This document shows, one piece after another, positions 5,667 to 31,025 of a stretch of 37,619 bases of DNA. Both the position numbers and the translations under genes were made by a program. This DNA is from an uncultured Candidatus Saccharibacteria bacterium (GTDB taxonomy: Bacteria > Patescibacteriota > Doudnabacteria > UBA920). Position 1 is the first letter of the stretch; every line of letters begins with the position of its first letter. The stretch covers positions 7,637 through 45,255 of the forward strand of contig CAZGCV010000003.1 in assembly GCA_964524735.1 (NCBI GenBank), in the 5' to 3' direction. The notes beneath the pieces were generated by a model. It saw nothing but the letters and a program-made list of their open reading frames with translations. It had not been told where the DNA came from and ran no database searches.

Positions 5667-6509
5667 ATGTTTAAACGAATTATTGTTATCGCATTTTTAA
5701 TTGTGCTCCTATTTGGTTCCGTAGGGGCTTTGACTTTGTATCGTAATTATAAAGCTCGCGAAGCAGAGCGTATTGCCCGCATGCAGCAAAAAGCTGAATC
5801 CATTCCAGTAACTTTTATTGAAGGTTGGACTAATAATCAAATTGCAGCAGAACTGGAAAAGAAAGGCTTCTTTTCCAAAAAAGAATTTTTAGACGCACTG
5901 GATAATTTCGATGAGTCTCAATTTCCGCTTTTAGATAGACCAGATGGAAAACGTTTAGAAGGATACCTTTTCCCAGATACTTACGAGTTTTTCAAAAACA
6001 GCACGCCAAATGATGTAATTAAAAAAATGCTTGCTAATTATTCCCAGCGTTTAGCATCAATTGGAATTACAAATTCAGATCAGAAGCATAATGGTTTGAG
6101 TTTATATGAAATTATGACTTTAGCTTCCATTATTGAAAAAGAGAGCGGGGGAAAGGGTTCTACAACAGGCAGTATGACTTTACAGGAAGAACGTAACTTA
6201 GTTGCGAGCGTGTTTTATAATCGTCTAAAAATTGGACAAGGTTTGGAAAGTGATGCCACTGTTAACTATGTAACAGGCAAAGATACTCCTGCTGCATCAG
6301 CGGCAGACTTAAAAGTGGATTCACCTTACAATACATATAAATACGCAGGTCTTCCTCCTGGACCAATTTGTAATCCGTCCTTAGGGAGTATTCGCGCAGC
6401 AATAGACCCAGCTAAAAGTGATTATTATTTCTTTTTACATAAACAGCCATCAGGCGCAGTCGTGTTCAGCAAAACTTTTGATGAGCACGTGAGAAATAAA
6501 TTCCAGTAA
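5667..6509 (+). CDS. mltG: endolytic murein transglycosylase MltG (YceG-like)
   Basis: N-terminal TM anchor, LEGYLFPDTYEF, ASIIEKES and YNTYKYAGLPPGPICNP signatures of the YceG family. Confidence 0.9.
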   Translation: MFKRIIVIAFLIVLLFGSVGALTLYRNYKAREAERIARMQQKAESIPVTFIEGWTNNQIAAELEKKGFFSKKEFLDALDNFDESQFPLLDRPDGKRLEGYLFPDTYEFFKNSTPNDVIKKMLANYSQRLASIGITNSDQKHNGLSLYEIMTLASIIEKESGGKGSTTGSMTLQEERNLVASVFYNRLKIGQGLESDATVNYVTGKDTPAASAADLKVDSPYNTYKYAGLPPGPICNPSLGSIRAAIDPAKSDYYFFLHKQPSGAVVFSKTFDEHVRNKFQ

Positions 6510-14655: not shown

Positions 14656-15513
14656 ATGACTCTTAAAACCTTTGCTTCTATTCTAATAGTAATTGGCTTT
14701 GCGATAGCTGCTTTGGAAGGTATTCCTCAGCGTTCTTGGGAATGGTTTAAGGGAACTCAGGTTGCGACTTCAATTTTTTCGTTGGCTGGTACGGAAGAAA
14801 AATTGCCAGGACCGTTACGTGGTATTTTAGATGGCATTGGTGGGAGTAATTTAACAACTCAGGGAATAGTGCAATCTACTAACGACCATCGTGAAAGTAA
14901 TGGTTTAATACCTCTACGTTTAAACGCAAAGTTAAGTAAGGCGGCGGAAGCAAAAGTGAATGACATGTTTGCAAAACAGTATTTTGAACATGAATCACCA
15001 GACGGTAAATCACCAGCAGATATCATTCGCGCTCAAAGTTACGAGTATATAATAGTAGGAGAAAATTTAGCGCTAGGAAATTTTAAAGATGATCAAGTTT
15101 TAGTTCAAGCTTGGATGGATAGCCCTGGCCATAGAGCTAATATTTTAAATGGAAAGTTTCATGAGATTGGAGTATATGCACGCAAAGGTATGTATGAAGG
15201 TAAAGAGGTCTGGTTAGCTGTACAAGAGTTTGGTGCTCCTTTGTCTTCATGTCCTGCGCCAAATAAAAGCATGAAACCGGAAATTGATGCTAACCGTGCT
15301 CAGCTTGAATCACAGCAAGCAGAGTTGTTGCGACAAAAATCTCAACTTGAATCCAGTCGATACGCAAATGAGCAAGACTATAATGCGGCTGTTCAAAGAT
15401 ATAACGACTTAGTGCAACGAACTAATAAGCTGTCCGAAGAAACTCAAGAATTGGTTCGCAAATACAATGAAGCTGTAAATACATTTAATAACTGTTTGGA
15501 GTCGAATTCTTAA
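14656..15513 (+). CDS. membrane-anchored/secreted CAP (SCP/PR-1, YkwD-like) domain protein with a C-terminal coiled coil
   Basis: N-terminal hydrophobic anchor, GENLALG...AWMDSPGHRANIL...HEIGVY CAP signature, and a Q/E/L-rich heptad tail. Confidence 0.7.
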   Translation: MTLKTFASILIVIGFAIAALEGIPQRSWEWFKGTQVATSIFSLAGTEEKLPGPLRGILDGIGGSNLTTQGIVQSTNDHRESNGLIPLRLNAKLSKAAEAKVNDMFAKQYFEHESPDGKSPADIIRAQSYEYIIVGENLALGNFKDDQVLVQAWMDSPGHRANILNGKFHEIGVYARKGMYEGKEVWLAVQEFGAPLSSCPAPNKSMKPEIDANRAQLESQQAELLRQKSQLESSRYANEQDYNAAVQRYNDLVQRTNKLSEETQELVRKYNEAVNTFNNCLESNS

Positions 15514-18412: not shown

Positions 18413-18421
18413 TGCTATAAT
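18413..18421 (+). promoter_or_regulatory. extended -10 box (TGCTATAAT) 7 nt upstream of the ATG at 18429
   Basis: Exact TGnTATAAT, with 7 nt to the start codon and no SD. Confidence 0.4.
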
Positions 18422-18428
18422 AATAGTA

Positions 18429-19724
18429 ATGTTGAATCAGAAACTTGAAACTAAAACTATCTTAAAAATATCAGGAATAGCCGCGTTAATTGGCTTAATT
18501 AGCGTTGGTGTTTTTGTGTTGTCAGCAGAAAAATTGGTTTTTGCTCAAGCAAATCAGCGTGATGTTCTAAATGATAAAATCCAACGTTTGCAACAGCAAA
18601 TTAACGCCTATCAGCAGTCTATTAATACTACTCGTAAGCAAGGAGCTAGCTTGCAGAATGAGATCAATATTTACGATAATCAGATTGCTTCTTTAGAATT
18701 ACAAATTCAGGCAAATCAAACTCAAACTGAAGATACAAATTTGCAAATTAATGAGCTGCAAACTCAGATTGATAGACGTAAAGTTGAAATTGAAGAGAAT
18801 AAATTAATATTAGGTTCTTTGGTTCGTCAAATTGCTGAATTAGACACCAACTCTTTTGTTCAAATCGGTTTAGGTACAGATAATTTTTCTGCATTTTTGG
18901 ATCAAATTCAATATAGTAGAAGCGTGTCTCAACAGGTTTACACTTTGGTTGCAAAAATTAAAGAAATTAAATCTAAATTAGAAACTCAGCAAGCAGACTT
19001 AAAGAAATCTTTAGAAAAACTTAAAGAGCTTGCAGGTCAACTGGCAATCGCAGAAGAAGCTTTAAATGAAGACCGTACTGCTAAATCAGCATTGCTTGCG
19101 CAGACTAAAGGCGTAGAAAAAAATTATCAGAACCTTTTGAAAGGTGCTTCTGCGGAACAAGATAAAATTCAAGCTGAATTATATAATTTAGACAATGCTG
19201 CTAGAGGTCGTGCTGGTAACCCAAGTATTTCTGCTAAGAAAGGTGTATTAGCTTGGCCGATGGATGGTGTGTTAACACAAGGTTATGGAAATACTGGTTT
19301 TACTTCTTTGGGCTACAATTTTCATAATGGTATAGACGTTGCTGCTCCCGCAGGAAAACCTATTTATGCTGCAGCGGATGGTACTGTTGCGCATTGTAAT
19401 TCAAGCCAGCAAGCGTATGGAAACTGGTGTACTATTTATCATACTGTAGATACTAATAATGGTGCGAGAGATATTGTGACTTTGTATGCACATATGCGCT
19501 CATATTTAATTGCGCCTGGGCAAGCTGTAAAAATGGGTGACTTAATTGGTTATGAAGGAAACACTGGTAATACAACCCGTTTGCTTTATGGCCCAGAACG
19601 AGGTTATCATTTACACTTTACAGTGTTCGATCGTAAGGGATATACAGTAACGAAGGGATCTTATGGTAATTACTATGTGCCGTCTGGAGCAACCTATAAT
19701 CCACTTAGCTTCTTAGGAAAATGA
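18429..19724 (+). CDS. coiled-coil M23 (LytM-type) peptidoglycan endopeptidase, EnvC/PcsB-like architecture
   Basis: N-terminal anchor, about 230 aa of Q/L/E-rich coiled coil, then an M23 domain with intact HNGIDV (HxxxD) and YHLHF (HxH). Confidence 0.85.
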   Translation: MLNQKLETKTILKISGIAALIGLISVGVFVLSAEKLVFAQANQRDVLNDKIQRLQQQINAYQQSINTTRKQGASLQNEINIYDNQIASLELQIQANQTQTEDTNLQINELQTQIDRRKVEIEENKLILGSLVRQIAELDTNSFVQIGLGTDNFSAFLDQIQYSRSVSQQVYTLVAKIKEIKSKLETQQADLKKSLEKLKELAGQLAIAEEALNEDRTAKSALLAQTKGVEKNYQNLLKGASAEQDKIQAELYNLDNAARGRAGNPSISAKKGVLAWPMDGVLTQGYGNTGFTSLGYNFHNGIDVAAPAGKPIYAAADGTVAHCNSSQQAYGNWCTIYHTVDTNNGARDIVTLYAHMRSYLIAPGQAVKMGDLIGYEGNTGNTTRLLYGPERGYHLHFTVFDRKGYTVTKGSYGNYYVPSGATYNPLSFLGK

Positions 19725-20857
19725 TGAAATCCTTGGTCACAAGGCGGGTTGGTCGAATTCTACTTAGTTCATTTTTAGTGCTGCAGATTTTTTTGGGACA
19801 AGCAGGGCAACTTGTTTTTCCAGTGCAGCAGGCGCAGGCGCAAGGGTTACTAAATCCTTTGGATCCTGATGTGCCTAGGACAAACGTTGAAGTCCCACAA
19901 TACACTGGGCGAGGCGTTGAAGAAAGTATTAAAGCATATTTGTGTGTTCCTGATGAATCAAATTTAGGAACGGCTTTGTATACATGTATAACAAAGTTAT
20001 ATAGATTTGGTATTGCTTTTGGTTCTATTGCTTTGGTGTTCTTTGTTGTTTACGCTGGCTATATTTATATGACTGGTGGTGAAGCTGCTAAGAAGAAGGC
20101 TAAAAGCGGTTTATTTAGTTCGTTAATAGGAATGGGTGTTATTTTGTCGAGTTTCGTTTTACTCAGTTTTATTAACCCAGAACTCATTAGGATAAAACCA
20201 ATTCAACCGCCAATTTTTACTGCTAGTAGCTTACCTTCCTGTGAGTCTGTTGGCTTTGGTGCAAATTGTATTTTACCTAGCGGGCAGGTTCATTATGCGG
20301 GTGGTAGTGGGGGCGGTGCAACTGGGAATATGCGACAGTGGCAGGCGCTTATTACTACTAATGCTCAAGCACAGGGAATCGAATATTGCGCATTGTATGC
20401 TCTAGTAGAATTAGAATCATCTGCTAATCATTTGATAGTTTCTAATGGACCTCCTCGTACTGTTAACCCTAATCATTCTGATAAAAAGTTTTATGGCTTA
20501 CCTTTTACTCGTGCTGCTACAGGAAGCTCTATTAGAGGGCATGGGATAGGATTGGGACAAATTTTTATTTATGGGCCACCAGGTGGGCCTAGTAATGATA
20601 GATGGCCAGACCCTAGTACTCCGTCTAGAGGTGGTAGGGAGTTTGGATTTGATCGAGCATTAACAATAACTGATTTAATTAATCCTGACACAAACTTAAA
20701 GGCTGCGGCTTATCACTTTGCTAAAGTGAAAATGAGAAACGTAGCACCTGGTAATTACTCACAAGGATACGCTAATTATCATGGGGCTGGTTCTATTAAT
20801 GGTATTAATGTAAAAGAAATTTACCAAACCAAGTATTTAAGATGCAAAGGTTCATAA
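19721..20857 (+). CDS. signal peptide + VirB2/TrbC-pilin-like two-helix module fused to an SLT-type lytic transglycosylase domain
   Basis: Signal peptide ending AQA-QG, then a Cys pair (C75, C89). Two hydrophobic helices are separated by the basic loop TGGEAAKKKAKSG. The C-terminus carries ALVELESSANH (catalytic Glu-Ser), GIGLGQI and NPDTNLKAAAYHF, matching the SLT pattern. ATGA overlap with the M23 gene. Confidence 0.6.
   Translation: MMKSLVTRRVGRILLSSFLVLQIFLGQAGQLVFPVQQAQAQGLLNPLDPDVPRTNVEVPQYTGRGVEESIKAYLCVPDESNLGTALYTCITKLYRFGIAFGSIALVFFVVYAGYIYMTGGEAAKKKAKSGLFSSLIGMGVILSSFVLLSFINPELIRIKPIQPPIFTASSLPSCESVGFGANCILPSGQVHYAGGSGGGATGNMRQWQALITTNAQAQGIEYCALYALVELESSANHLIVSNGPPRTVNPNHSDKKFYGLPFTRAATGSSIRGHGIGLGQIFIYGPPGGPSNDRWPDPSTPSRGGREFGFDRALTITDLINPDTNLKAAAYHFAKVKMRNVAPGNYSQGYANYHGAGSINGINVKEIYQTKYLRCKGS
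19844..20272 (+). repeat. conserved N-terminal module, copy 1 (diverged paralogous duplication with 21454..21876)
   Basis: By manual alignment the ~90-aa core YRFGIAFG...KPIQPPIF...LPSC has about two-thirds identical residues between the two proteins. DNA similarity is visible (tatagatttggtattgcttttgg vs tatagatttggaattgcattcgg). Confidence 0.6.
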
Positions 20858-20858
20858 T

Positions 20859-21371
20859 ATGTTTGATTATATAAAGTCACATTTACATATAATACTTATT
20901 ATTCTAATAATTGTATTTTTATTGATTACAATTGTTGTGTTTTTTATGCCAGCAAATCAAACAACAAATGTGAATGTAGATCAAATAACTCCAGCCGATG
21001 TTGTGGTGTTGAATGAAAATTTATCAGCTGAACAAAAATCTGCAAGTTTAGCAGCATTAGACTATTTATATACTTACGGAAACTACTCCTACGAAGATAA
21101 TAGATTGCAAAGTCTGGATGGTAATGTTACTTCAAGAATGTCTTCATTAGTAAATAATTTAGCGAATGAAATTAATAATAATCCAGATAAATTTTCTACA
21201 TTAGCTCCTGTTAGCGAAAATTACAAAGTTGAATTATCAGGTGATTCAGCAACTGTTACTATACCCGCTATACTGAGTAATAATGAAGTTCAAAATAAGT
21301 CAGTGTTAACACTGGTTACTCTTAAAATGGTTAATTCTTATTGGGTATTAGATGGCTTTGATGTTAACTAG
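20859..21371 (+). CDS. bitopic membrane protein (N-terminal TM anchor + ~135-aa extracytoplasmic domain), unknown function
   Basis: 170 aa. The hydrophobic segment IILIILIIVFLLITIVVFF lies near the N-terminus. Starts 1 nt after the upstream stop and overlaps the downstream gene by 20 nt. Confidence 0.5.
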   Translation: MFDYIKSHLHIILIILIIVFLLITIVVFFMPANQTTNVNVDQITPADVVVLNENLSAEQKSASLAALDYLYTYGNYSYEDNRLQSLDGNVTSRMSSLVNNLANEINNNPDKFSTLAPVSENYKVELSGDSATVTIPAILSNNEVQNKSVLTLVTLKMVNSYWVLDGFDVN

Positions 21372-22353
21372 ATTAAAACAAATATTATTTATTGTCTTGA
21401 TTGCTTTAACACTGGCTAATCCTGTGTTGGCTTTAGCGCAGTCTCAATCACCTGGGTTAGTGAATCCTATTAATCCGCAAGTGCAGACTACAAATGTAGA
21501 TGTGCCGGTTTATCAAAACGTGCAGCAAAGCGTTACAAACTTTTTGTGTACCCCAAGTGAAAATCCCGATGGGCGTGATTTAGAAAGATGTATTAATAAA
21601 GTTTATAGATTTGGAATTGCATTCGGTGCAATCGCTTTAGTATTTTTTGTCGTATTGGCTGGGTACTATTACATTACGGGAGGGGAAAACGGTAAAGGTA
21701 AGGCTAAAGGTATTGTTCAGAATTCTTTAGTAGGTATGGGGTTGTTACTTGGAAGTTATGTGTTGCTTAGATTTATTAATCCAGACTTAGTTGTATTTAA
21801 ACCAATCCAACCGCCAATTTTTTCTGCAGAAGATTTGCCTTCATGTGATGAGATTGGGTTGGGTAATGATTGTGTGATTGTGGCTAGCACTGAGGAGCAA
21901 ACTGATGGTAATACAGGTACTGGCGGTGGTAGTTATGCTGATTGCTCTGGAGGGGTTATACCTATTAGTGGCATACCTAGAGCTGGTAGCGGCACAAGAA
22001 TATGTAAAGAGCTTTCTGATAAAATGGTTCCTTTATTAGCTCAGTTTAAATCGCAAGCGCCTGGTTATTATTTCGCTATATCATCAACTATTAGAAACAC
22101 TAGAGCGGAAAGTAGATGTCACTATGACGGAAACTCAAAAAGCGGAAACTGCGCTGATACTGTTTTAAGAACCACTGCTGGTGCTAAAGTTCCTGGAAGC
22201 AACCCTGCGTGGGGTACTCTTTGCAGGTTGCTGCTCGGTGCTGGGTTATCATTGGCTAATGAAACTGGTTCAGCACATCAAGGTTGTAGAAACCCAACAT
22301 CGTATCAATTTACTAATGGGGCTCATTTCCATGTATATGTACCAGGTAGATAA
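21352..22353 (+). CDS. signal peptide + the same pilin-like two-helix module fused to a Cys-rich, LAS/M15-like putative zinc peptidase domain
   Basis: Signal peptide ending ALA-QS. The N-module is paralogous to 19721..20857. The C-terminus has SSTIRNTRAESRCH...GNCAD...GAHFHVYV, resembling the S.R...H...D...H.H arrangement of LAS (M15/Hedgehog-type) metallopeptidases. The start could also be the ATG at 21361. Confidence 0.45.
   Translation: MALMLTRLKQILFIVLIALTLANPVLALAQSQSPGLVNPINPQVQTTNVDVPVYQNVQQSVTNFLCTPSENPDGRDLERCINKVYRFGIAFGAIALVFFVVLAGYYYITGGENGKGKAKGIVQNSLVGMGLLLGSYVLLRFINPDLVVFKPIQPPIFSAEDLPSCDEIGLGNDCVIVASTEEQTDGNTGTGGGSYADCSGGVIPISGIPRAGSGTRICKELSDKMVPLLAQFKSQAPGYYFAISSTIRNTRAESRCHYDGNSKSGNCADTVLRTTAGAKVPGSNPAWGTLCRLLLGAGLSLANETGSAHQGCRNPTSYQFTNGAHFHVYVPGR
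21454..21876 (+). repeat. conserved N-terminal module, copy 2
   Basis: See 19844..20272. Similarity stops abruptly after the conserved LPSC-x7-C loop. Confidence 0.6.
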
Positions 22354-22441
22354 AAATGTATATTATACGACCGTCATATATAAAAAGTAATATATAAATA
22401 ATCAGGGGAGTGTTATAAAGGGGATAATAAACGATATTAAT

Positions 22442-22470
22442 TTAAAACCGCCAGTCAATGGCGGTTTTAA
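22442..22470. terminator. strong bidirectional rho-independent terminator
   Basis: AAAACCGCC (22444..22452), loop AGTCAAT, GGCGGTTTT (22460..22468), flanked by T/A runs on both sides. Confidence 0.75.
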
Positions 22471-22691: not shown

Positions 22692-23915
22692 TTATATCCT
22701 AAATACTTTTCTAAGCATTGGTATGAGTTCTTCTAATGTTGATATAACGTAATTTATTTGTTGTTTAGAAGTAGACTTACCCATAGTAAATCTTACAGCA
22801 CTATATGAGGCTTGTCGGTTGTGTCCTAAAGCCCTTATGACATGTGATGGATCTGTGCTACTGGTGGCGCATGCGCTTCCTGTTGATACTGCTATTCCCT
22901 TGCTGTCCAAATAAAGCAATAAACTTTCTCCTTCAATACCATCAAAATTAATATTGATGTTGTTTGGTAATCGATTTAATCTTTTATTATTGGATATTAT
23001 TTTAGGACCATTAATAGAAATATCTTTAACTTTTTTAAATAGACGGTCGGCGAAGTATTCTTGTAAAGATACTAATTTGTTTACTTCTTTGATTAAATCC
23101 TTTTGACCGAGCTTAAGGGCTGTGGCAAGACCTACAATTCCGGGAACGTTTTCAGTTCCGCTGCGCAAATTACGCTCTTGCCCGCCACCATGAATTAAAG
23201 GTTTAAGATTAATGCCAGAACGGACAAATAGAATACCAGTTTGTTTTGGACCGTAAATTTTACTGCCGTTAAGTGTGAGTAGGTCGACTTTGAGTTCGTG
23301 TGTATCTAAAGATAGCGCTCCACCAGCTTGGCATGCGTCTGTATGAAAAGCAATGGTGTTTAATTTTTTCTGAACGCGAGCTTTATTTAAACCACTTACC
23401 CACTTCCCTATTTCTTCAATCGGCTCAATGGTACCAATTTCGTTGTTGGCGTACATAATTGAAATTAGCGCCGTATCTTTTTTTACCAACTTTTTAAGTT
23501 CCGCAAGCGAAACAAATCCCTCTTTGTCTACTTTAACAATACTGATTTTCCAACCTTCTTCTTTTAATGAATCAACTGCATGAAGTACAGAATGATGTTC
23601 GATCGCGCTAGTGATAATGTGACCTGGTTTGCCATGCTTATTTTTGTATGCTTTAGCAACTCCAAAAATAGCAAGGTTGTTGCTTTCTGTTCCACCGGCG
23701 GTGAAAATTATTTCCGCAGGTTTGCAATTTAAAATTTCAGAAATTTCAGCACGCGCATTATTGACTGCTGATTTGGCTTCTAATCCAGATTTATATAGCC
23801 CAGAAGGATTGGCGAACTTATCAGACCAGTATGGTTGCATAGCTTTAAGAACACGTGGGTCAACAGGTGTTGTTGCTGCATGATCTAGGTAAACGAGCTT
23901 TTTTGAAGGTTTCAT
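22692..23915 (-). CDS. cysteine desulfurase (class-V aminotransferase, NifS/IscS family)
   Basis: YLDHAATTP, FTAGGTESNN, HTDACQ, the PLP-lysine context LNGSKIYGPK, and the catalytic Cys loop STGSACATSS. Confidence 0.9.
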   Translation of the reverse strand: MKPSKKLVYLDHAATTPVDPRVLKAMQPYWSDKFANPSGLYKSGLEAKSAVNNARAEISEILNCKPAEIIFTAGGTESNNLAIFGVAKAYKNKHGKPGHIITSAIEHHSVLHAVDSLKEEGWKISIVKVDKEGFVSLAELKKLVKKDTALISIMYANNEIGTIEPIEEIGKWVSGLNKARVQKKLNTIAFHTDACQAGGALSLDTHELKVDLLTLNGSKIYGPKQTGILFVRSGINLKPLIHGGGQERNLRSGTENVPGIVGLATALKLGQKDLIKEVNKLVSLQEYFADRLFKKVKDISINGPKIISNNKRLNRLPNNININFDGIEGESLLLYLDSKGIAVSTGSACATSSTDPSHVIRALGHNRQASYSAVRFTMGKSTSKQQINYVISTLEELIPMLRKVFRI

Positions 23916-26081: not shown

Positions 26082-26094
26082 TTACATCAAAGAT

Positions 26095-26125
26095 AAAAGC
26101 CGCTCCAATTAAGGGGCGGCTTTTT
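26095..26125. terminator. bidirectional terminator between rpmA and pyrG
   Basis: AAAAGCCGCTCC / GGGGCGGCTTTT stem (12 pairs including one G-U), loop AATTAA, flanked by A-run and T-run. Confidence 0.7.
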
Positions 26126-26126
26126 A

Positions 26127-27833
26127 TTATCTGCTTTTTACAATAGCGCGGATGAATTCTACAAACAATGGATGTGGACTAAATGGACGAGACTTAAACT
26201 CTGGATGGAATTGAGTGGCAACAAAGAACTTATGTTCTTTTAATTCAATAATTTCGACCAAGCTGCCGTCTGGAGTTGTTCCTGCAATTGTCAGGCCCGC
26301 AGCTTCAAGGCGTTCTCGATACTCATTGTTAAACTCATAGCGGTGTCGATGACGTTCTGAAATTGTATTTGCATTCCGGCCACGACTACCAGGAGAAATC
26401 CAGCCGGCTTTAGCATAAGCCTTCTCTGTTTTGGTTCCAGGAGCCACAACGCAATCCCAAGATCCAAGGCGCATTGTAGCGCCATATTCTCGCTTTAGAA
26501 GCATTTTTTCTTGTTCAGGCATTATATGTATAACAGCGTGTTTTACATTCTCCTGTACCTCTGTGGTGTGAGCATTTCTAATTTTTGCAACATTGCGAGC
26601 AAATTCAATGCTAGCTAACTGCATTCCATAGCAAAGTCCTAAATACGGAATATTCTTAGTACGTGCGTATTTAATAGTTTCAATTATCCCATCAACTCCC
26701 CTGCTGCCGAAACCTCCTGGTACACAGATACCATCAAATTCAGATAAAACTTTTGCTGCGCCTTTCTTTTCAATTTCTACGCTTGATATCCAGTTCAGGT
26801 TTATTTTAGCTTTATTTGCCCAGCTGGCGTGTTTTAACGCTTCGATTACTGAAACGTAAACATCTGCAAGCTGATATGAACCAGTTTCAAAATATTTACC
26901 TACTACAGCAATTTCAAGCTGAGATTTTTGCTCAGCTGTTTTTGTAATGTCTGAAACCAGTTTATTCCACTGTTTCATATCTTTTTTGCGTGGAGGCATA
27001 TTGAATTGTTTGAGTAATTTGTCCGCCAAGCCTTCTTTATCAAAATTTACAGGGACACGGTAGATGCTATCTACATTAGGCGCTGCAATAATATTCTCAG
27101 CTGGAATATTTGTAGTCCAGGCTAATGTTTGTTTGCGCCTGTCATCCATTTTTTCTTCTGCGCGAGCAATAAGAAAATCTGGCTGAATGCCAGAAGCAAC
27201 TAACTGCTTAACAGAATTCTGTACTGGCTTTGATTTCATTTCCCCGATGCTCGGTGGAGTTGGTAAATAGCCAACATGAACGTGGGCGGTGTCGCGACCG
27301 TCTCGATACTTCATTATGCGATTAGCTTCAATGAACAAAATATTTTGATATTCACCTACTGTACCACCAACCTCACAAATTACAAAATCCGCTTTGCGTG
27401 CACGTGCAGCTTGCTCTAGTCGATTAATAATTTCTTCTGGGACATGCAATGCAACTTCTACATCCTCACCTTTAAATTCAAAATTTCTTTCCTTTTGAAT
27501 TATTGTTTGATACAGCTGTCCATTGGTTAAATAGTTTGCTTTGGAGAGGTCAGTATTAAGAAACCTTTCATAATTTCCTAAATCTTGATCTGTTTCCATG
27601 CCGTCATCAGTAACAAAAACTTCCCCGTGTTCTTGTGGACGGATTGTACCAGCATCCACGTTTAAATATGCGTCGCATTTTACAGGCGCAACGCTGTAAC
27701 CACGCGCTTGCAGTAAAGCTGCGATTGCTGAAGTAGTGACACCTTTTCCGACCCCAGAAATAACTCCTCCGGAGACAAAAATAAACTTAGTGTTGAGTTT
27801 CTTAGCTTTGCGTGCTTTTACGTGGTATGACAT
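26127..27833 (-). CDS. pyrG: CTP synthase
   Basis: KFIFVSGGVISGVGKG, the glutamine amidotransferase GLCYGMQ catalytic Cys, and QFHPEFKS. 568 aa. Confidence 0.95.
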   Translation of the reverse strand: MSYHVKARKAKKLNTKFIFVSGGVISGVGKGVTTSAIAALLQARGYSVAPVKCDAYLNVDAGTIRPQEHGEVFVTDDGMETDQDLGNYERFLNTDLSKANYLTNGQLYQTIIQKERNFEFKGEDVEVALHVPEEIINRLEQAARARKADFVICEVGGTVGEYQNILFIEANRIMKYRDGRDTAHVHVGYLPTPPSIGEMKSKPVQNSVKQLVASGIQPDFLIARAEEKMDDRRKQTLAWTTNIPAENIIAAPNVDSIYRVPVNFDKEGLADKLLKQFNMPPRKKDMKQWNKLVSDITKTAEQKSQLEIAVVGKYFETGSYQLADVYVSVIEALKHASWANKAKINLNWISSVEIEKKGAAKVLSEFDGICVPGGFGSRGVDGIIETIKYARTKNIPYLGLCYGMQLASIEFARNVAKIRNAHTTEVQENVKHAVIHIMPEQEKMLLKREYGATMRLGSWDCVVAPGTKTEKAYAKAGWISPGSRGRNANTISERHRHRYEFNNEYRERLEAAGLTIAGTTPDGSLVEIIELKEHKFFVATQFHPEFKSRPFSPHPLFVEFIRAIVKSR

Positions 27834-29417: not shown

Positions 29418-30332
29418 TTATTTTTGCAAGTATTTGCGCATTGCTAATACGCTAGAAATAGTACTCAAAGTGAAAGCAATCAGTAATTGAATTAATACCA
29501 AGACAAAGAATATTGCTAAGTTTCCTGTGAATGTAGCACCTGATGATGTTAGATATACGCTTATTCTTGGTAATAATCCTGTATATACAGGGAAGAGTAG
29601 AGAGCTTGTAATTATAGTCGCAAGAATGCTATAAATTAATGCTTCAATAATAAACGGTCCTCGAATATACCAATTCGTAGCACCAACTAAACGCATGATC
29701 TCTACTTCTTCTTTGCGGTTATAAATTGTCAAAGTAATTGTATTGAATATTACCAAAACTGCAATTGAAGAAAATACTGCAATTAAAATTATTCCAACAG
29801 TGATGATGAATTTTAAGAGGTTGTTAAGACGATCTATTAAGACTCGATTGTCTTCAAAGTTTACTTTTTCAATTGCCGCACTATAACGTTCTTCGCCAAG
29901 CATTTTAGCTACTTCTGGATAATCCTCTAATTTTGTAGCTTTAATTTGCAGTGTTGCAGGCAAAGGATTTTCATTCAACTCGCTAACAGATTCCAAAAGT
30001 AATGGGTCATTTTGGTGATCTTGTTTAAATTTAGCAAGAGCTTCTTCTGCAGATACATAGCGTACCTGCTCAATTCGGCTATCTTGTTGTATTTGATCAC
30101 GAATCACAAAAATCTGACTTTCCGCTAAGCCATTTTTAAAGTAAGCGGAAATATCTACACGCTCTTGAATAGTTTTAACAGAAGAGTTCGTAATTACGAA
30201 AAGCAAAGAAAGCACTGAAAGAATAATCAGTGTAATTGTCATGATGAGTGTAGACGCACTTGCCAGCCAAAGATTTCGGCGGAAGTTAGTCAAACCCATT
30301 TTAATAATTCGGAAAAATGAAATAAAGTTCAT
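29418..30332 (-). CDS. ftsX: cell-division ABC transporter permease-like protein FtsX
   Basis: Four TM helices with a large first extracytoplasmic loop, plus the conserved EVEIMRLVGATNWYIRGPF segment. Confidence 0.85.
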   Translation of the reverse strand: MNFISFFRIIKMGLTNFRRNLWLASASTLIMTITLIILSVLSLLFVITNSSVKTIQERVDISAYFKNGLAESQIFVIRDQIQQDSRIEQVRYVSAEEALAKFKQDHQNDPLLLESVSELNENPLPATLQIKATKLEDYPEVAKMLGEERYSAAIEKVNFEDNRVLIDRLNNLLKFIITVGIILIAVFSSIAVLVIFNTITLTIYNRKEEVEIMRLVGATNWYIRGPFIIEALIYSILATIITSSLLFPVYTGLLPRISVYLTSSGATFTGNLAIFFVLVLIQLLIAFTLSTISSVLAMRKYLQK

Positions 30333-30347
30333 TGAGGTTAGACGGCT

Positions 30348-31025
30348 TTATAGTTTGTACTTGCCTTTTTGCTGTTCCAGAGTAATCTGGCCGCCTTCGA
30401 TTGTTATTACACGTTTGTTTATTTTGTTTACCAGTTCCGCTGCATGAGTTGCTAGTAGTACAGTAGTTCCAAGTTTGTTTATTTTGAGCAATAAATCTAA
30501 AACTTCAGCGGCATTTTCTGGATCTAGGTTACCTGTCGGCTCATCTGCTAATAGTAAAACAGGACGATGTGCTAATGATCGAGCGATTGCAACACGCTGA
30601 CGTTCCCCACCAGACATTTCATGAGGAAAGGAATCTTTTTTATGTAATAGTCCTACTAGTTCTAAAATTTTTGGAACATCTTTATTGATGCGATCTTTTG
30701 TATGTCCAGAAACTTCCATTGCAAAAGCAACATTTTCAAATGCTGTACGACGAGGTAAAAGCTTGATATCTTGAAACACCATTCCGATCTTACGACGAAG
30801 ATAAGGAAGGTCAGACTTTTTTACACGAGTCATATCTATTTCATCAATAAGAATACGCCCATCGTCTACAATTTCTTCGCCGATGAGCATTTTCATTAAG
30901 GTAGATTTACCAGCGCCAGACATTCCTACAACAGAAATAAACTCCCCATGGTTAATGTGGAGGTTGATATTATTCAAAGCTTTATTTTTGCCGTAGTATT
31001 TTGTTACGTTGTCGAATCGAATCAT
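30348..31025 (-). CDS. ftsE: cell-division ATP-binding protein FtsE
   Basis: Walker A GMSGAGKST, signature MSGGERQR, Walker B VLLADEPTGNLD. 225 aa, immediately upstream of ftsX. Confidence 0.92.
   Translation of the reverse strand: MIRFDNVTKYYGKNKALNNINLHINHGEFISVVGMSGAGKSTLMKMLIGEEIVDDGRILIDEIDMTRVKKSDLPYLRRKIGMVFQDIKLLPRRTAFENVAFAMEVSGHTKDRINKDVPKILELVGLLHKKDSFPHEMSGGERQRVAIARSLAHRPVLLLADEPTGNLDPENAAEVLDLLLKINKLGTTVLLATHAAELVNKINKRVITIEGGQITLEQQKGKYKL

Follow-up and report, generated by a model that had tools for sequence, protein, structure and literature searches.

Pilin-family membrane hairpins joined to putative peptidoglycan hydrolases in an EnvC-led operon of Patescibacteria

A 37.6-kb stretch of the contig CAZGCV010000003.1 (37,619 nucleotides, referred to here as the window) from an uncultured Candidatus Saccharibacteria bacterium was analysed, with attention to a four-gene operon, g1 to g4, that has about 18 kb of the window upstream of it and 15 kb downstream. 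Two of the genes, g2 and g4, encode predicted peptidoglycan hydrolases in which the enzyme domain follows a two-helix membrane hairpin related to the pilin family of type IV secretion systems (T4SS) in Patescibacteria. The first gene encodes an EnvC-like peptidase and the third a small bitopic membrane protein. The features of the operon are as follows.

18413..18421, plus strand: extended -10 promoter box TGCTATAAT, 7 nt upstream of the g1 ATG
18429..19724, plus strand: g1, EnvC-like protein of 431 aa, with a signal peptide or anchor at aa 14-32 and a coiled coil at about aa 37-260
19320..19631, plus strand: Peptidase_M23 domain of g1 (PF01551), aa 298-401
19721..20857, plus strand: g2, 378 aa, predicted signal peptide ending at about AQAQ (aa 40)
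19886..20275, plus strand: PF18895-type N-module of g2, aa 56-185, followed by a Gly-rich linker
20318..20854, plus strand: SLT-fold domain of g2, aa 200-378, AlphaFold2 predicted local distance difference test (pLDDT) >90
20859..21371, plus strand: g3, bitopic protein of 170 aa, with a transmembrane helix at aa 11-29 and an extracytoplasmic domain of ~140 aa predicted from hydropathy
21352..22353, plus strand: g4, 333 aa, with predicted signal peptide, hairpin, linker and Cys-rich C-domain
21490..21879, plus strand: PF18895-type N-module of g4, aa 47-176
21925..22350, plus strand: Cys-rich domain of g4 with a Hedgehog/DD-peptidase fold, aa 192-333, AlphaFold2 pLDDT >93
22442..22470, no strand: intrinsic-terminator-like hairpin with a 14-bp perfect stem and flanking A-tract and U-tract

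The four open reading frames (ORFs) and their junctions are as described in the initial annotation of the window: an ATGA overlap joins g1 to g2, a 1-nt gap separates g2 from g3, and g3 and g4 overlap by 20 nt. Together they form a tightly coupled operon that is co-conserved in related genomes.

The N-terminal ~180 aa of g2 and g4 are 49% identical (E 2e-58) and the C-termini are unrelated. The shared module opens with a segment resembling a signal peptide, with an AQA-type site at its end. After this come a conserved stretch in which two cysteines are invariant, then a pair of hydrophobic helices connected through a GGExxKxKAK loop, the conserved segment INPxL..KPIQPPIF, a further pair of cysteines and, last, the Gly-rich linker. 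There are four conserved cysteines in all, in pairs that flank both helices. The helices are predicted by AlphaFold2 at residues 84-118 and 121-151 of g2 (hairpin pLDDT ~80) and at residues 76-109 and 111-142 of g4 (~95). By hydropathy and structure prediction, both proteins have the features of the T4SS_pilin family PF18895: a predicted cleavable signal peptide, two transmembrane helices and a short basic loop. As single sequences both score below the PF18895 cut-off of 26.6 bits, g2 at 21.5 (E 2.5e-4; 23.8 for its N-module alone) and g4 at 15.3. The relationship is clearer at the level of the family, where 25 of 27 N-modules match PF18895 (best E 1.7e-12) and seven match TrbC/VirB2 weakly. 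A further 108 representatives of 50%-identity clusters include 79 that match PF18895 and eight that match TrbC (best E 7e-26). The g4 module is also 37% identical (E 1e-13) to a stand-alone protein of 137 aa from Ca. Campbellbacteria, over an alignment that takes in both helices, the loop and a FINPDLV motif. In this complete genome (CP011215.1) the protein's gene lies two genes downstream of VirB4. These family matches and the VirB4-adjacent relative uphold the earlier description of the module as VirB2/TrbC-like and suggest that it belongs to the 'T4SS pilin' family PF18895 of Patescibacteria, either as an ordinary member or as a divergent subfamily. Searches of the PDB by sequence with g2, g4 and the N-module profile gave nothing meaningful and detected no solved VirB2 or TraA structure. 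The profile finds ~38,000 cluster representatives at E <= 1e-3, a figure to be read cautiously as the profile is hydrophobic, and 6,698 at E <= 1e-10.

As in the VirB2-like pilins of PF18895, including the essential array of six genes SEML1_0014-0019 in Southlakia epibionticum, there is a signal peptide, two helices, a basic loop and a SY..L.FINP motif, and in both groups the paralogues are arranged in tandem or split by one non-pilin gene. The small stand-alone pilins are, however, ~100-150 aa in length and lie beside VirB4, a combination also seen in the relatives L033 and L041. In contrast, g2 and g4 are 333-378 aa, carry C-terminal hydrolase domains and extra Cys-containing flanks, and have no T4SS gene near them. 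Since the signal peptide is predicted to be cleaved and the loop between the helices is positively charged, the enzyme domains of both proteins should be extracytoplasmic, which agrees with the outward orientation put forward in the initial annotation.

Some proteins have 3 to 7 tandem pilin-like hairpins in one chain (P0117, P0197, P0205, P0217, P0246, P0281). For example, P0117 (L050 2284..3669) has three, followed by a C-terminal Rpf-like lysozyme motif, 'AGCESAG...CGLFQ'. A simple pilin role is difficult to square with such chains, which would have 6-14 membrane crossings.

The region of g2 beyond the linker had been read from its motifs (ELESS, GLGQI and AAAYHF, all present) as an SLT lytic transglycosylase domain. 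Against SLT (PF01464) g2 scores 14.1 bits (E 0.034), below the cut-off of 21.3, and many of its orthologues carry a PF01464 match. A Foldseek search with the modelled domain returned MltE (2y8p; E 1e-3, probability 1.0), then MltC, Slt, MltF and hen lysozyme. Across 39 sequences E232-S233, G277, L278 and Q280 are invariant, with Y350 and Y353 nearly so. A lysozyme-like fold, the Glu of an E-S motif and motifs of the GLxQ and AYNxG-like kinds, which are traits of lytic transglycosylases, are therefore all found in g2. The fold and the invariant Glu-Ser bear out the motif-based reading, and the model indicates a domain of the SLT/lysozyme fold, probably a family-1 lytic transglycosylase or lysozyme-like enzyme. 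A gene for a YceG/MltG endolytic transglycosylase (5667..6509, E 1e-69) is present 12 kb upstream of the operon, so that besides g2 the genome encodes one or more other enzymes that cut glycan strands.

The C-domain of g4 has no match among Pfam or NCBIfam families, including those of M15 and VanY. Its model is closest by Foldseek to the Hedgehog domains ShhN, IhhN and DhhN (E 3.6e-4 to 1e-2, TM-score 0.5-0.59), followed by the VanY-like LdcB (4jid/4mph, E 0.06). Nothing significant was returned from viral structures, and no phage endolysin resembles the domain. In an alignment of 45 sequences, H257, D269, E304, H327 and six cysteines never vary, and H325 is kept in most of them. The earlier assignment of g4 as a second hairpin protein with a Cys-rich LAS/M15-like domain is supported by this Hedgehog/LAS fold and by H257/D269/H327, and the protein is modelled as a LAS/Hedgehog-fold putative zinc peptidase. 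With the LAS/Hedgehog-DD-peptidases, such as ShhN, LdcB, VanX and M15, it shares the fold, and its sequence has a candidate H...D...H(xH) zinc-site pattern with a conserved Glu. It differs from the LAS/M15 enzymes in lacking a Pfam M15 or VanY match, in the longer spacing between His and Asp (11 residues between) and in the six conserved cysteines. A hidden Markov model of the g4 domain fails to detect the M15/VanY-type domains of fusions that are linked to VirB4 in other Patescibacteria. When the g4 domain and these M15-type domains are compared by hhalign the motifs line up in a weak match (E 0.006, probability 6%), and they are considered to belong to the same superfamily, with no claim of orthology. 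Many g4-type proteins are ~510-550 aa, with an extra C-terminal ~200 aa beyond the LAS domain that has no Pfam match (P0125, P0080, P0132-P0136; L008 9947..11509, L014 10001..11644).

The g1 protein matches Peptidase_M23 (PF01551) with 80.9 bits (cut-off 28.7). Its residues H300/D304, H352 and H393/H395, in the motifs HNGID, YAHM and HLHF, align with those of active M23 structures, and its coiled-coil region is indicated both by matches to domain libraries and by the alignment to EnvC. This is in keeping with the coiled-coil M23 endopeptidase with intact HxxxD/HxH that had been proposed. Two points were missed in the initial annotation. The first is that the resemblance to EnvC extends over the full length, residues 37-384 aligning to chain 8tzk_E, the EnvC of the Vibrio cholerae FtsEX-EnvC complex. 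The second is the presence of ftsE and ftsX outside the operon (29418..31025), ~7 kb away:

29418..30332, minus strand: ftsX, for which the syntenic genes in L001 and L051 carry FtsX_ECD/FtsX
30348..31025, minus strand: ftsE, for which the syntenic genes in L001 and L051 carry ABC_tran

The E. coli EnvC has a degenerate M23 site and activates amidases. Other coiled-coil hydrolases or activators controlled by FtsEX include PcsB, CwlO and RipC. By sequence, g1 appears EnvC-like in architecture with the catalytic residues kept. The likeness to the EnvC-FtsEX system extends to the nearby ftsEX genes and to a hairpin::Amidase_2 protein encoded in the same operon in one relative (L051). It differs from the system of E. 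coli in the intact M23 site and in that the partners are SLT and LAS domains tethered by hairpins, rather than soluble amidases. By analogy, we infer that FtsEX would regulate g1. The EnvC-like g1 and the presence of FtsEX 7 kb away point towards hydrolysis of the cell's own wall or a role in division.

The description of g3 as a 170-aa bitopic protein is supported by hydropathy. A word-based homology search returned only g3 itself, and searching its profile against the PDB gave nothing meaningful and no sequence link to VirB8/NTF2 proteins. Its positional orthologues are mutually homologous by jackhmmer and the protein is fast-evolving; a Pfam scan of 13 of these orthologues gave only scattered weak matches (DUF4440, NTF2_YvbJ, the IseA inhibitor). 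The positional orthologues in L001-L026 are of two types. Type A proteins are 170-184 aa and end in YWLVxxI. Type B proteins are 146-152 aa with C-terminal cysteines, usually followed by an extra gene for a bitopic protein of ~245 aa. The subtype of g3 co-varies with the class of the C-domain in the hairpin enzyme encoded upstream, and the pairing recurs in L050, adjacent to P0117 with its three hairpins. A cognate partner or an inhibitor would be expected to show such behaviour, and g3 is most likely a partner, inhibitor or regulator of the upstream enzyme, judging from this pattern among the sequences.

The operon was compared among 28 related loci (L001-L028), for each of which ~10 kb was retrieved on either side. 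The general layout is a gene for an EnvC-like M23 protein, hairpin::X, g3, an optional gene for a bitopic protein of ~245 aa, hairpin::Y and an optional hairpin::Z. In each of the 21 loci where enough sequence is available, the EnvC-like M23 gene immediately precedes the first hairpin gene, and the order EnvC-like M23, hairpin::enzyme, g3, hairpin::enzyme is present in at least 21 related genomes. Conservation of the gene order, which the initial annotation had suggested looking for, was found. That annotation had set out three grounds on which its proposal should be abandoned, namely N-modules without similarity to pilins, C-domains without hydrolase folds or catalytic residues, and genes that are not co-conserved. 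The similarity, the folds with their residues, and the co-conservation are all present.

The operon occupies a fixed slot in these genomes, preceded by fmt-def-CAP-wecG/NUDIX-gltX and followed by Aminotran_5 and then by rpmA, pyrG, rplI, ftsX and ftsE, and the slot is kept even in genomes in which the g2 orthologue is only 44-65% identical. The window itself is entirely housekeeping in content. An origin from a mobile element or phage was considered and rejected, because in every relative the locus keeps the one chromosomal position between housekeeping genes.

Although the slot is fixed, the enzymes within it are not. The N-module is shared by 197 homologues with C-termini in at least 14 unrelated classes, and the Pfam labels of the exchanged domains include SLT, Glucosaminidase, Amidase_2, CHAP, M23+VanX, M15_4, VanY, C39_2 and GDSL/SGNH. 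For example, the identical slot in L051 holds hairpin::SLT, g3, hairpin::Amidase_2 and hairpin::(M23+M15).

The operon is predicted to encode three plausibly active hydrolases of different bond classes, consistent with the earlier proposal of up to three peptidoglycan bond specificities from one unit. It is possible that these are a membrane-tethered set of autolysins that act on the cell's own wall and are coupled to FtsEX through the EnvC-like g1. This is the interpretation we favour, with a confidence that is about evenly balanced, because the EnvC-like gene comes first in every case, and because the operon is situated among housekeeping genes near ftsEX and can include an amidase. The g1 endopeptidase would probably dock on FtsEX. 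The g2 and g4 proteins would be exported by their cleavable signal peptides and then held in the membrane by the two-helix hairpin, with the N-terminus outside, the Lys-rich loop inside and the enzyme outside on the flexible Gly-rich linker. The g3 protein, in every case encoded after the first hairpin enzyme, would act as its cognate partner or inhibitor. Together the enzymes could cut the glycan strands and the peptide stems or cross-links for growth, separation of daughter cells or local opening of the wall.

Three points weigh against an autolysin set. The closest relatives of the hairpin outside this lineage adjoin VirB4 and PrgI, which makes a role linked to T4SS plausible. Enzyme cassettes of at least 14 classes have been swapped at a fixed locus with a fast-evolving gene downstream, which resembles effector/immunity systems. 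The proposed coupling to FtsEX is an analogy drawn from homology and from the distance of 7 kb.

The first of these points leads to an alternative in which the hairpin::hydrolases would be the equivalents of VirB1 in the T4SS of Patescibacteria, the pilin-like hairpin recruiting them to the VirB4/VirB6 machine, where they would make a local opening in the cell's own wall so that a channel or pilus can be assembled. In the present lineage the genes would have moved off the cluster. There are 15 loci of other Patescibacteria in which VirB4, PrgI and TraC-N are encoded 1-3 kb upstream of homologous hairpin genes. In L043 the order is PrgI, a split VirB4, a 199-aa bitopic protein, a T4SS_pilin fusion (338 aa), a 423-aa bitopic protein, a T4SS_pilin+SLT protein (459 aa), radA and recG. 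Both domains of the 459-aa protein score above the Pfam cut-offs, and the radA/recG context has been described for the class ABY1 (PMC12102498). The distant loci L029-L048 have 27 hairpin proteins, mostly VirB4-linked, of which 26 match PF18895. While some of these hairpins stand alone, others are fused to SLT (4), M15 (3), VanY (2) or M23 (1). Hairpin::SLT proteins are encoded inside T4SS clusters in L038 and L042-L046, as is typical of VirB1. In ABY1-like loci, the hairpin::SLT beside VirB4 may occupy the role of a VirB1 analogue.

The T4SS locus of S. epibionticum groups the same functions as separate proteins, with a lysozyme/CHAP protein, an M15B peptidase, an NTF2-like bitopic protein and six small PF18895 pilins (PMC10633639, Table S2). 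Few VirB1 homologues have been reported near virB4, VirB1 and VirB2 were treated apart, and pilus biogenesis was said not to need VirB1 (PMC12102498); fusions of the kind described here would fill this gap and are a possible answer to the reported scarcity. There is a further likeness to the hydrolases of Gram-positive-type T4SS (PrgK of pCF10, TraG of pIP501, CwlT of ICEBs1) and to SEML1_0006/0007, the lysozyme/CHAP and M15B pair of S. epibionticum, in that glycosidase and peptidase activities are membrane-anchored and extracytoplasmic. However, PrgK, TraG and CwlT have a single N-terminal transmembrane helix and several catalytic domains in each chain, whereas here there is one enzyme per pilin-family hairpin and the operon is not linked to a T4SS. 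The operon in the window does not lie inside a T4SS cluster: VirB4, PrgI and TraC-N are absent from the 37.6 kb, as is any type IV pilus gene, and none of these was found within ~10 kb in the 28 related loci. In addition, the operon of this lineage is led by the EnvC-like gene and not by T4SS genes. For the operon in the window, a role as VirB1 equivalents is therefore considered rather unlikely.

The VirB4 of L043 (6453..9046) appears to be split into two adjacent ORFs, as it does in L038, L042, L044-L046 and L048. One part, of ~230 aa, matches the N-terminal portion of TraC_F_IV and the other, of ~630 aa, has the P-loop (TraG/AAA_10) portion.

The exchange of enzymes at a fixed locus could also be explained by attack on the wall of a host. 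Here a T4SS would pull the hairpin::hydrolases out of the membrane and onto the filament or tip of a VirB2-like pilus, or cleavage at IQPPIF would release them, with g3 as an immunity protein. The constant N-module with at least 14 interchangeable classes of C-domain fits this, as do the small, fast-diverging membrane protein encoded directly downstream, the subtype of which co-varies with the enzyme class, and the Cys-rich nature of the extracytoplasmic domains. In parasitic Paceibacteria, proteins with the T4SS-pilin domain rank with the most highly expressed of the extracellular proteins (PMC10936435), and the T4SS with its pilin array is essential for the epibiotic growth of S. epibionticum (PMC10633639). 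Were this the case, the epibiont would bear interchangeable wall-cutting enzymes with which to drill into its host, the g3-type proteins providing cognate immunity. However, the locus is housekeeping in character, led by the EnvC-like gene and without a T4SS nearby, and a globular domain of 150-200 aa on each subunit would be hard to fit into a helical polymer of the VirB2 type. To our knowledge no pilus has been visualised for any PF18895 protein, and we know of no precedent for an enzyme-armed conjugative-type pilus. Modular swapping of catalytic domains is normal in the autolysins of monoderm bacteria, and both the exchange of cassettes and the fast evolution of g3 would also fit ordinary modularity of this kind. 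We therefore regard attack on a host wall as unlikely.

That the resemblance to pilins has no functional meaning, the hairpin being a generic two-helix anchor that matches PF18895 through its hydrophobic composition and one or both C-domains being dead, is very hard to credit, since the scores of g2 and g4 below the Pfam cut-offs for T4SS_pilin and of g2 for SLT, the failure of the N-module profile to match a solved VirB2 or TraA structure and the spurious matches that hydrophobic profiles attract, as seen for other membrane families in the same scans, are outweighed by the family-level matches to PF18895 and TrbC/VirB2, by an identity to the VirB4-linked pilin that includes the non-hydrophobic SY..L.FINPDL motif and the Lys-rich loop, and by catalytic residues that are invariant over 39-45 orthologues.

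The 'VirB2 arrays' of Quinonero-Coronel et al. 2025, and the VirB2-like pilins of Patescibacteria, have already been published (PMC12102498, PMC12857230, PMC10633639). A search of the literature found no paper describing fusions of the pilin family to hydrolases, although these fusions are widespread in sequence databases, where the proteins are annotated as 'pilin' or 'SLT domain-containing'. The distribution of these sequences suggests that, throughout the Patescibacteria, the hairpin serves as a general carrier of cell-wall enzymes. This group accounts for much of bacterial diversity, and its members live attached to other microbes. The T4SS and 'pilin' arrays of these bacteria are essential in the sole species tested (PMC10633639, PMC11665869). 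Rather than bare pilins, many members of the pilin family would be carriers of a peptidoglycan hydrolase, and almost all known classes are represented. Some of these proteins are encoded beside VirB4 and others, as here, in a housekeeping operon led by an EnvC-like gene. The reported 'VirB2 arrays' may therefore need to be read differently, which is of relevance to the fields of both the Candidate Phyla Radiation and T4SS. These proteins are testable candidates for the remodelling of the cell's own wall and for the breaching of host walls in ultrasmall cells, and the hairpin is a compact modular anchor of potential use in surface display.

The promoter box TGCTATAAT noted ahead of the operon in the initial annotation is borne out by comparison with relatives. 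A TGnTATAAT box with the same spacing to the start codon is present in ~17 of 21 orthologous loci, which is far above chance (loci named as sharing it are L003, L004, L008, L012, L014-L016, L019-L022, L024, L025 and L027). A generic sigma-70 promoter scan misses the box because there is no -35 element. The start region of g1 (18413..18431) has no Shine-Dalgarno sequence, and the placement of the box is conserved across the lineage. With the box conserved at 7 nt from the g1 ATG, the g1 mRNA is probably leaderless or near-leaderless and translated as such.

At the other end of the operon, the hairpin at 22442..22470 is situated between g4 and the convergent Aminotran_5 gene (22692..23915, minus strand), and is probably a bidirectional terminator. 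A generic terminator scan had no match at this position and the hairpin was confirmed by separate RNA folding (-22.7 kcal/mol, z = -7.3). It had been called the strongest hairpin in the window; it is real and strong, but as a 40-nt local fold it is second to one at 26092..26131, which is slightly better. That hairpin, which folds at -20.4 kcal/mol over 40 nt, has the L27 gene (25731..26081, plus strand) on one side and pyrG (26127..27833, minus strand) on the other, and is a second candidate for a bidirectional terminator.

The metagenome-assembled genomes (MAGs) that carry the operon are labelled as Ca. Doudnabacteria, Ca. Saccharibacteria or 'Patescibacteria group'. Some of the distant hairpin loci are labelled as 'Gammaproteobacteria' or 'Bdellovibrionales', and the MAG labels look coarse or wrong. 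The lineage is taken here to be Patescibacteria, probably Doudnabacteria-like. A CAP-domain protein with an OmpH-like C-terminal coiled region is encoded at 14656..15513, upstream of wecG-gltX, and is found there in all of the syntenic relatives.

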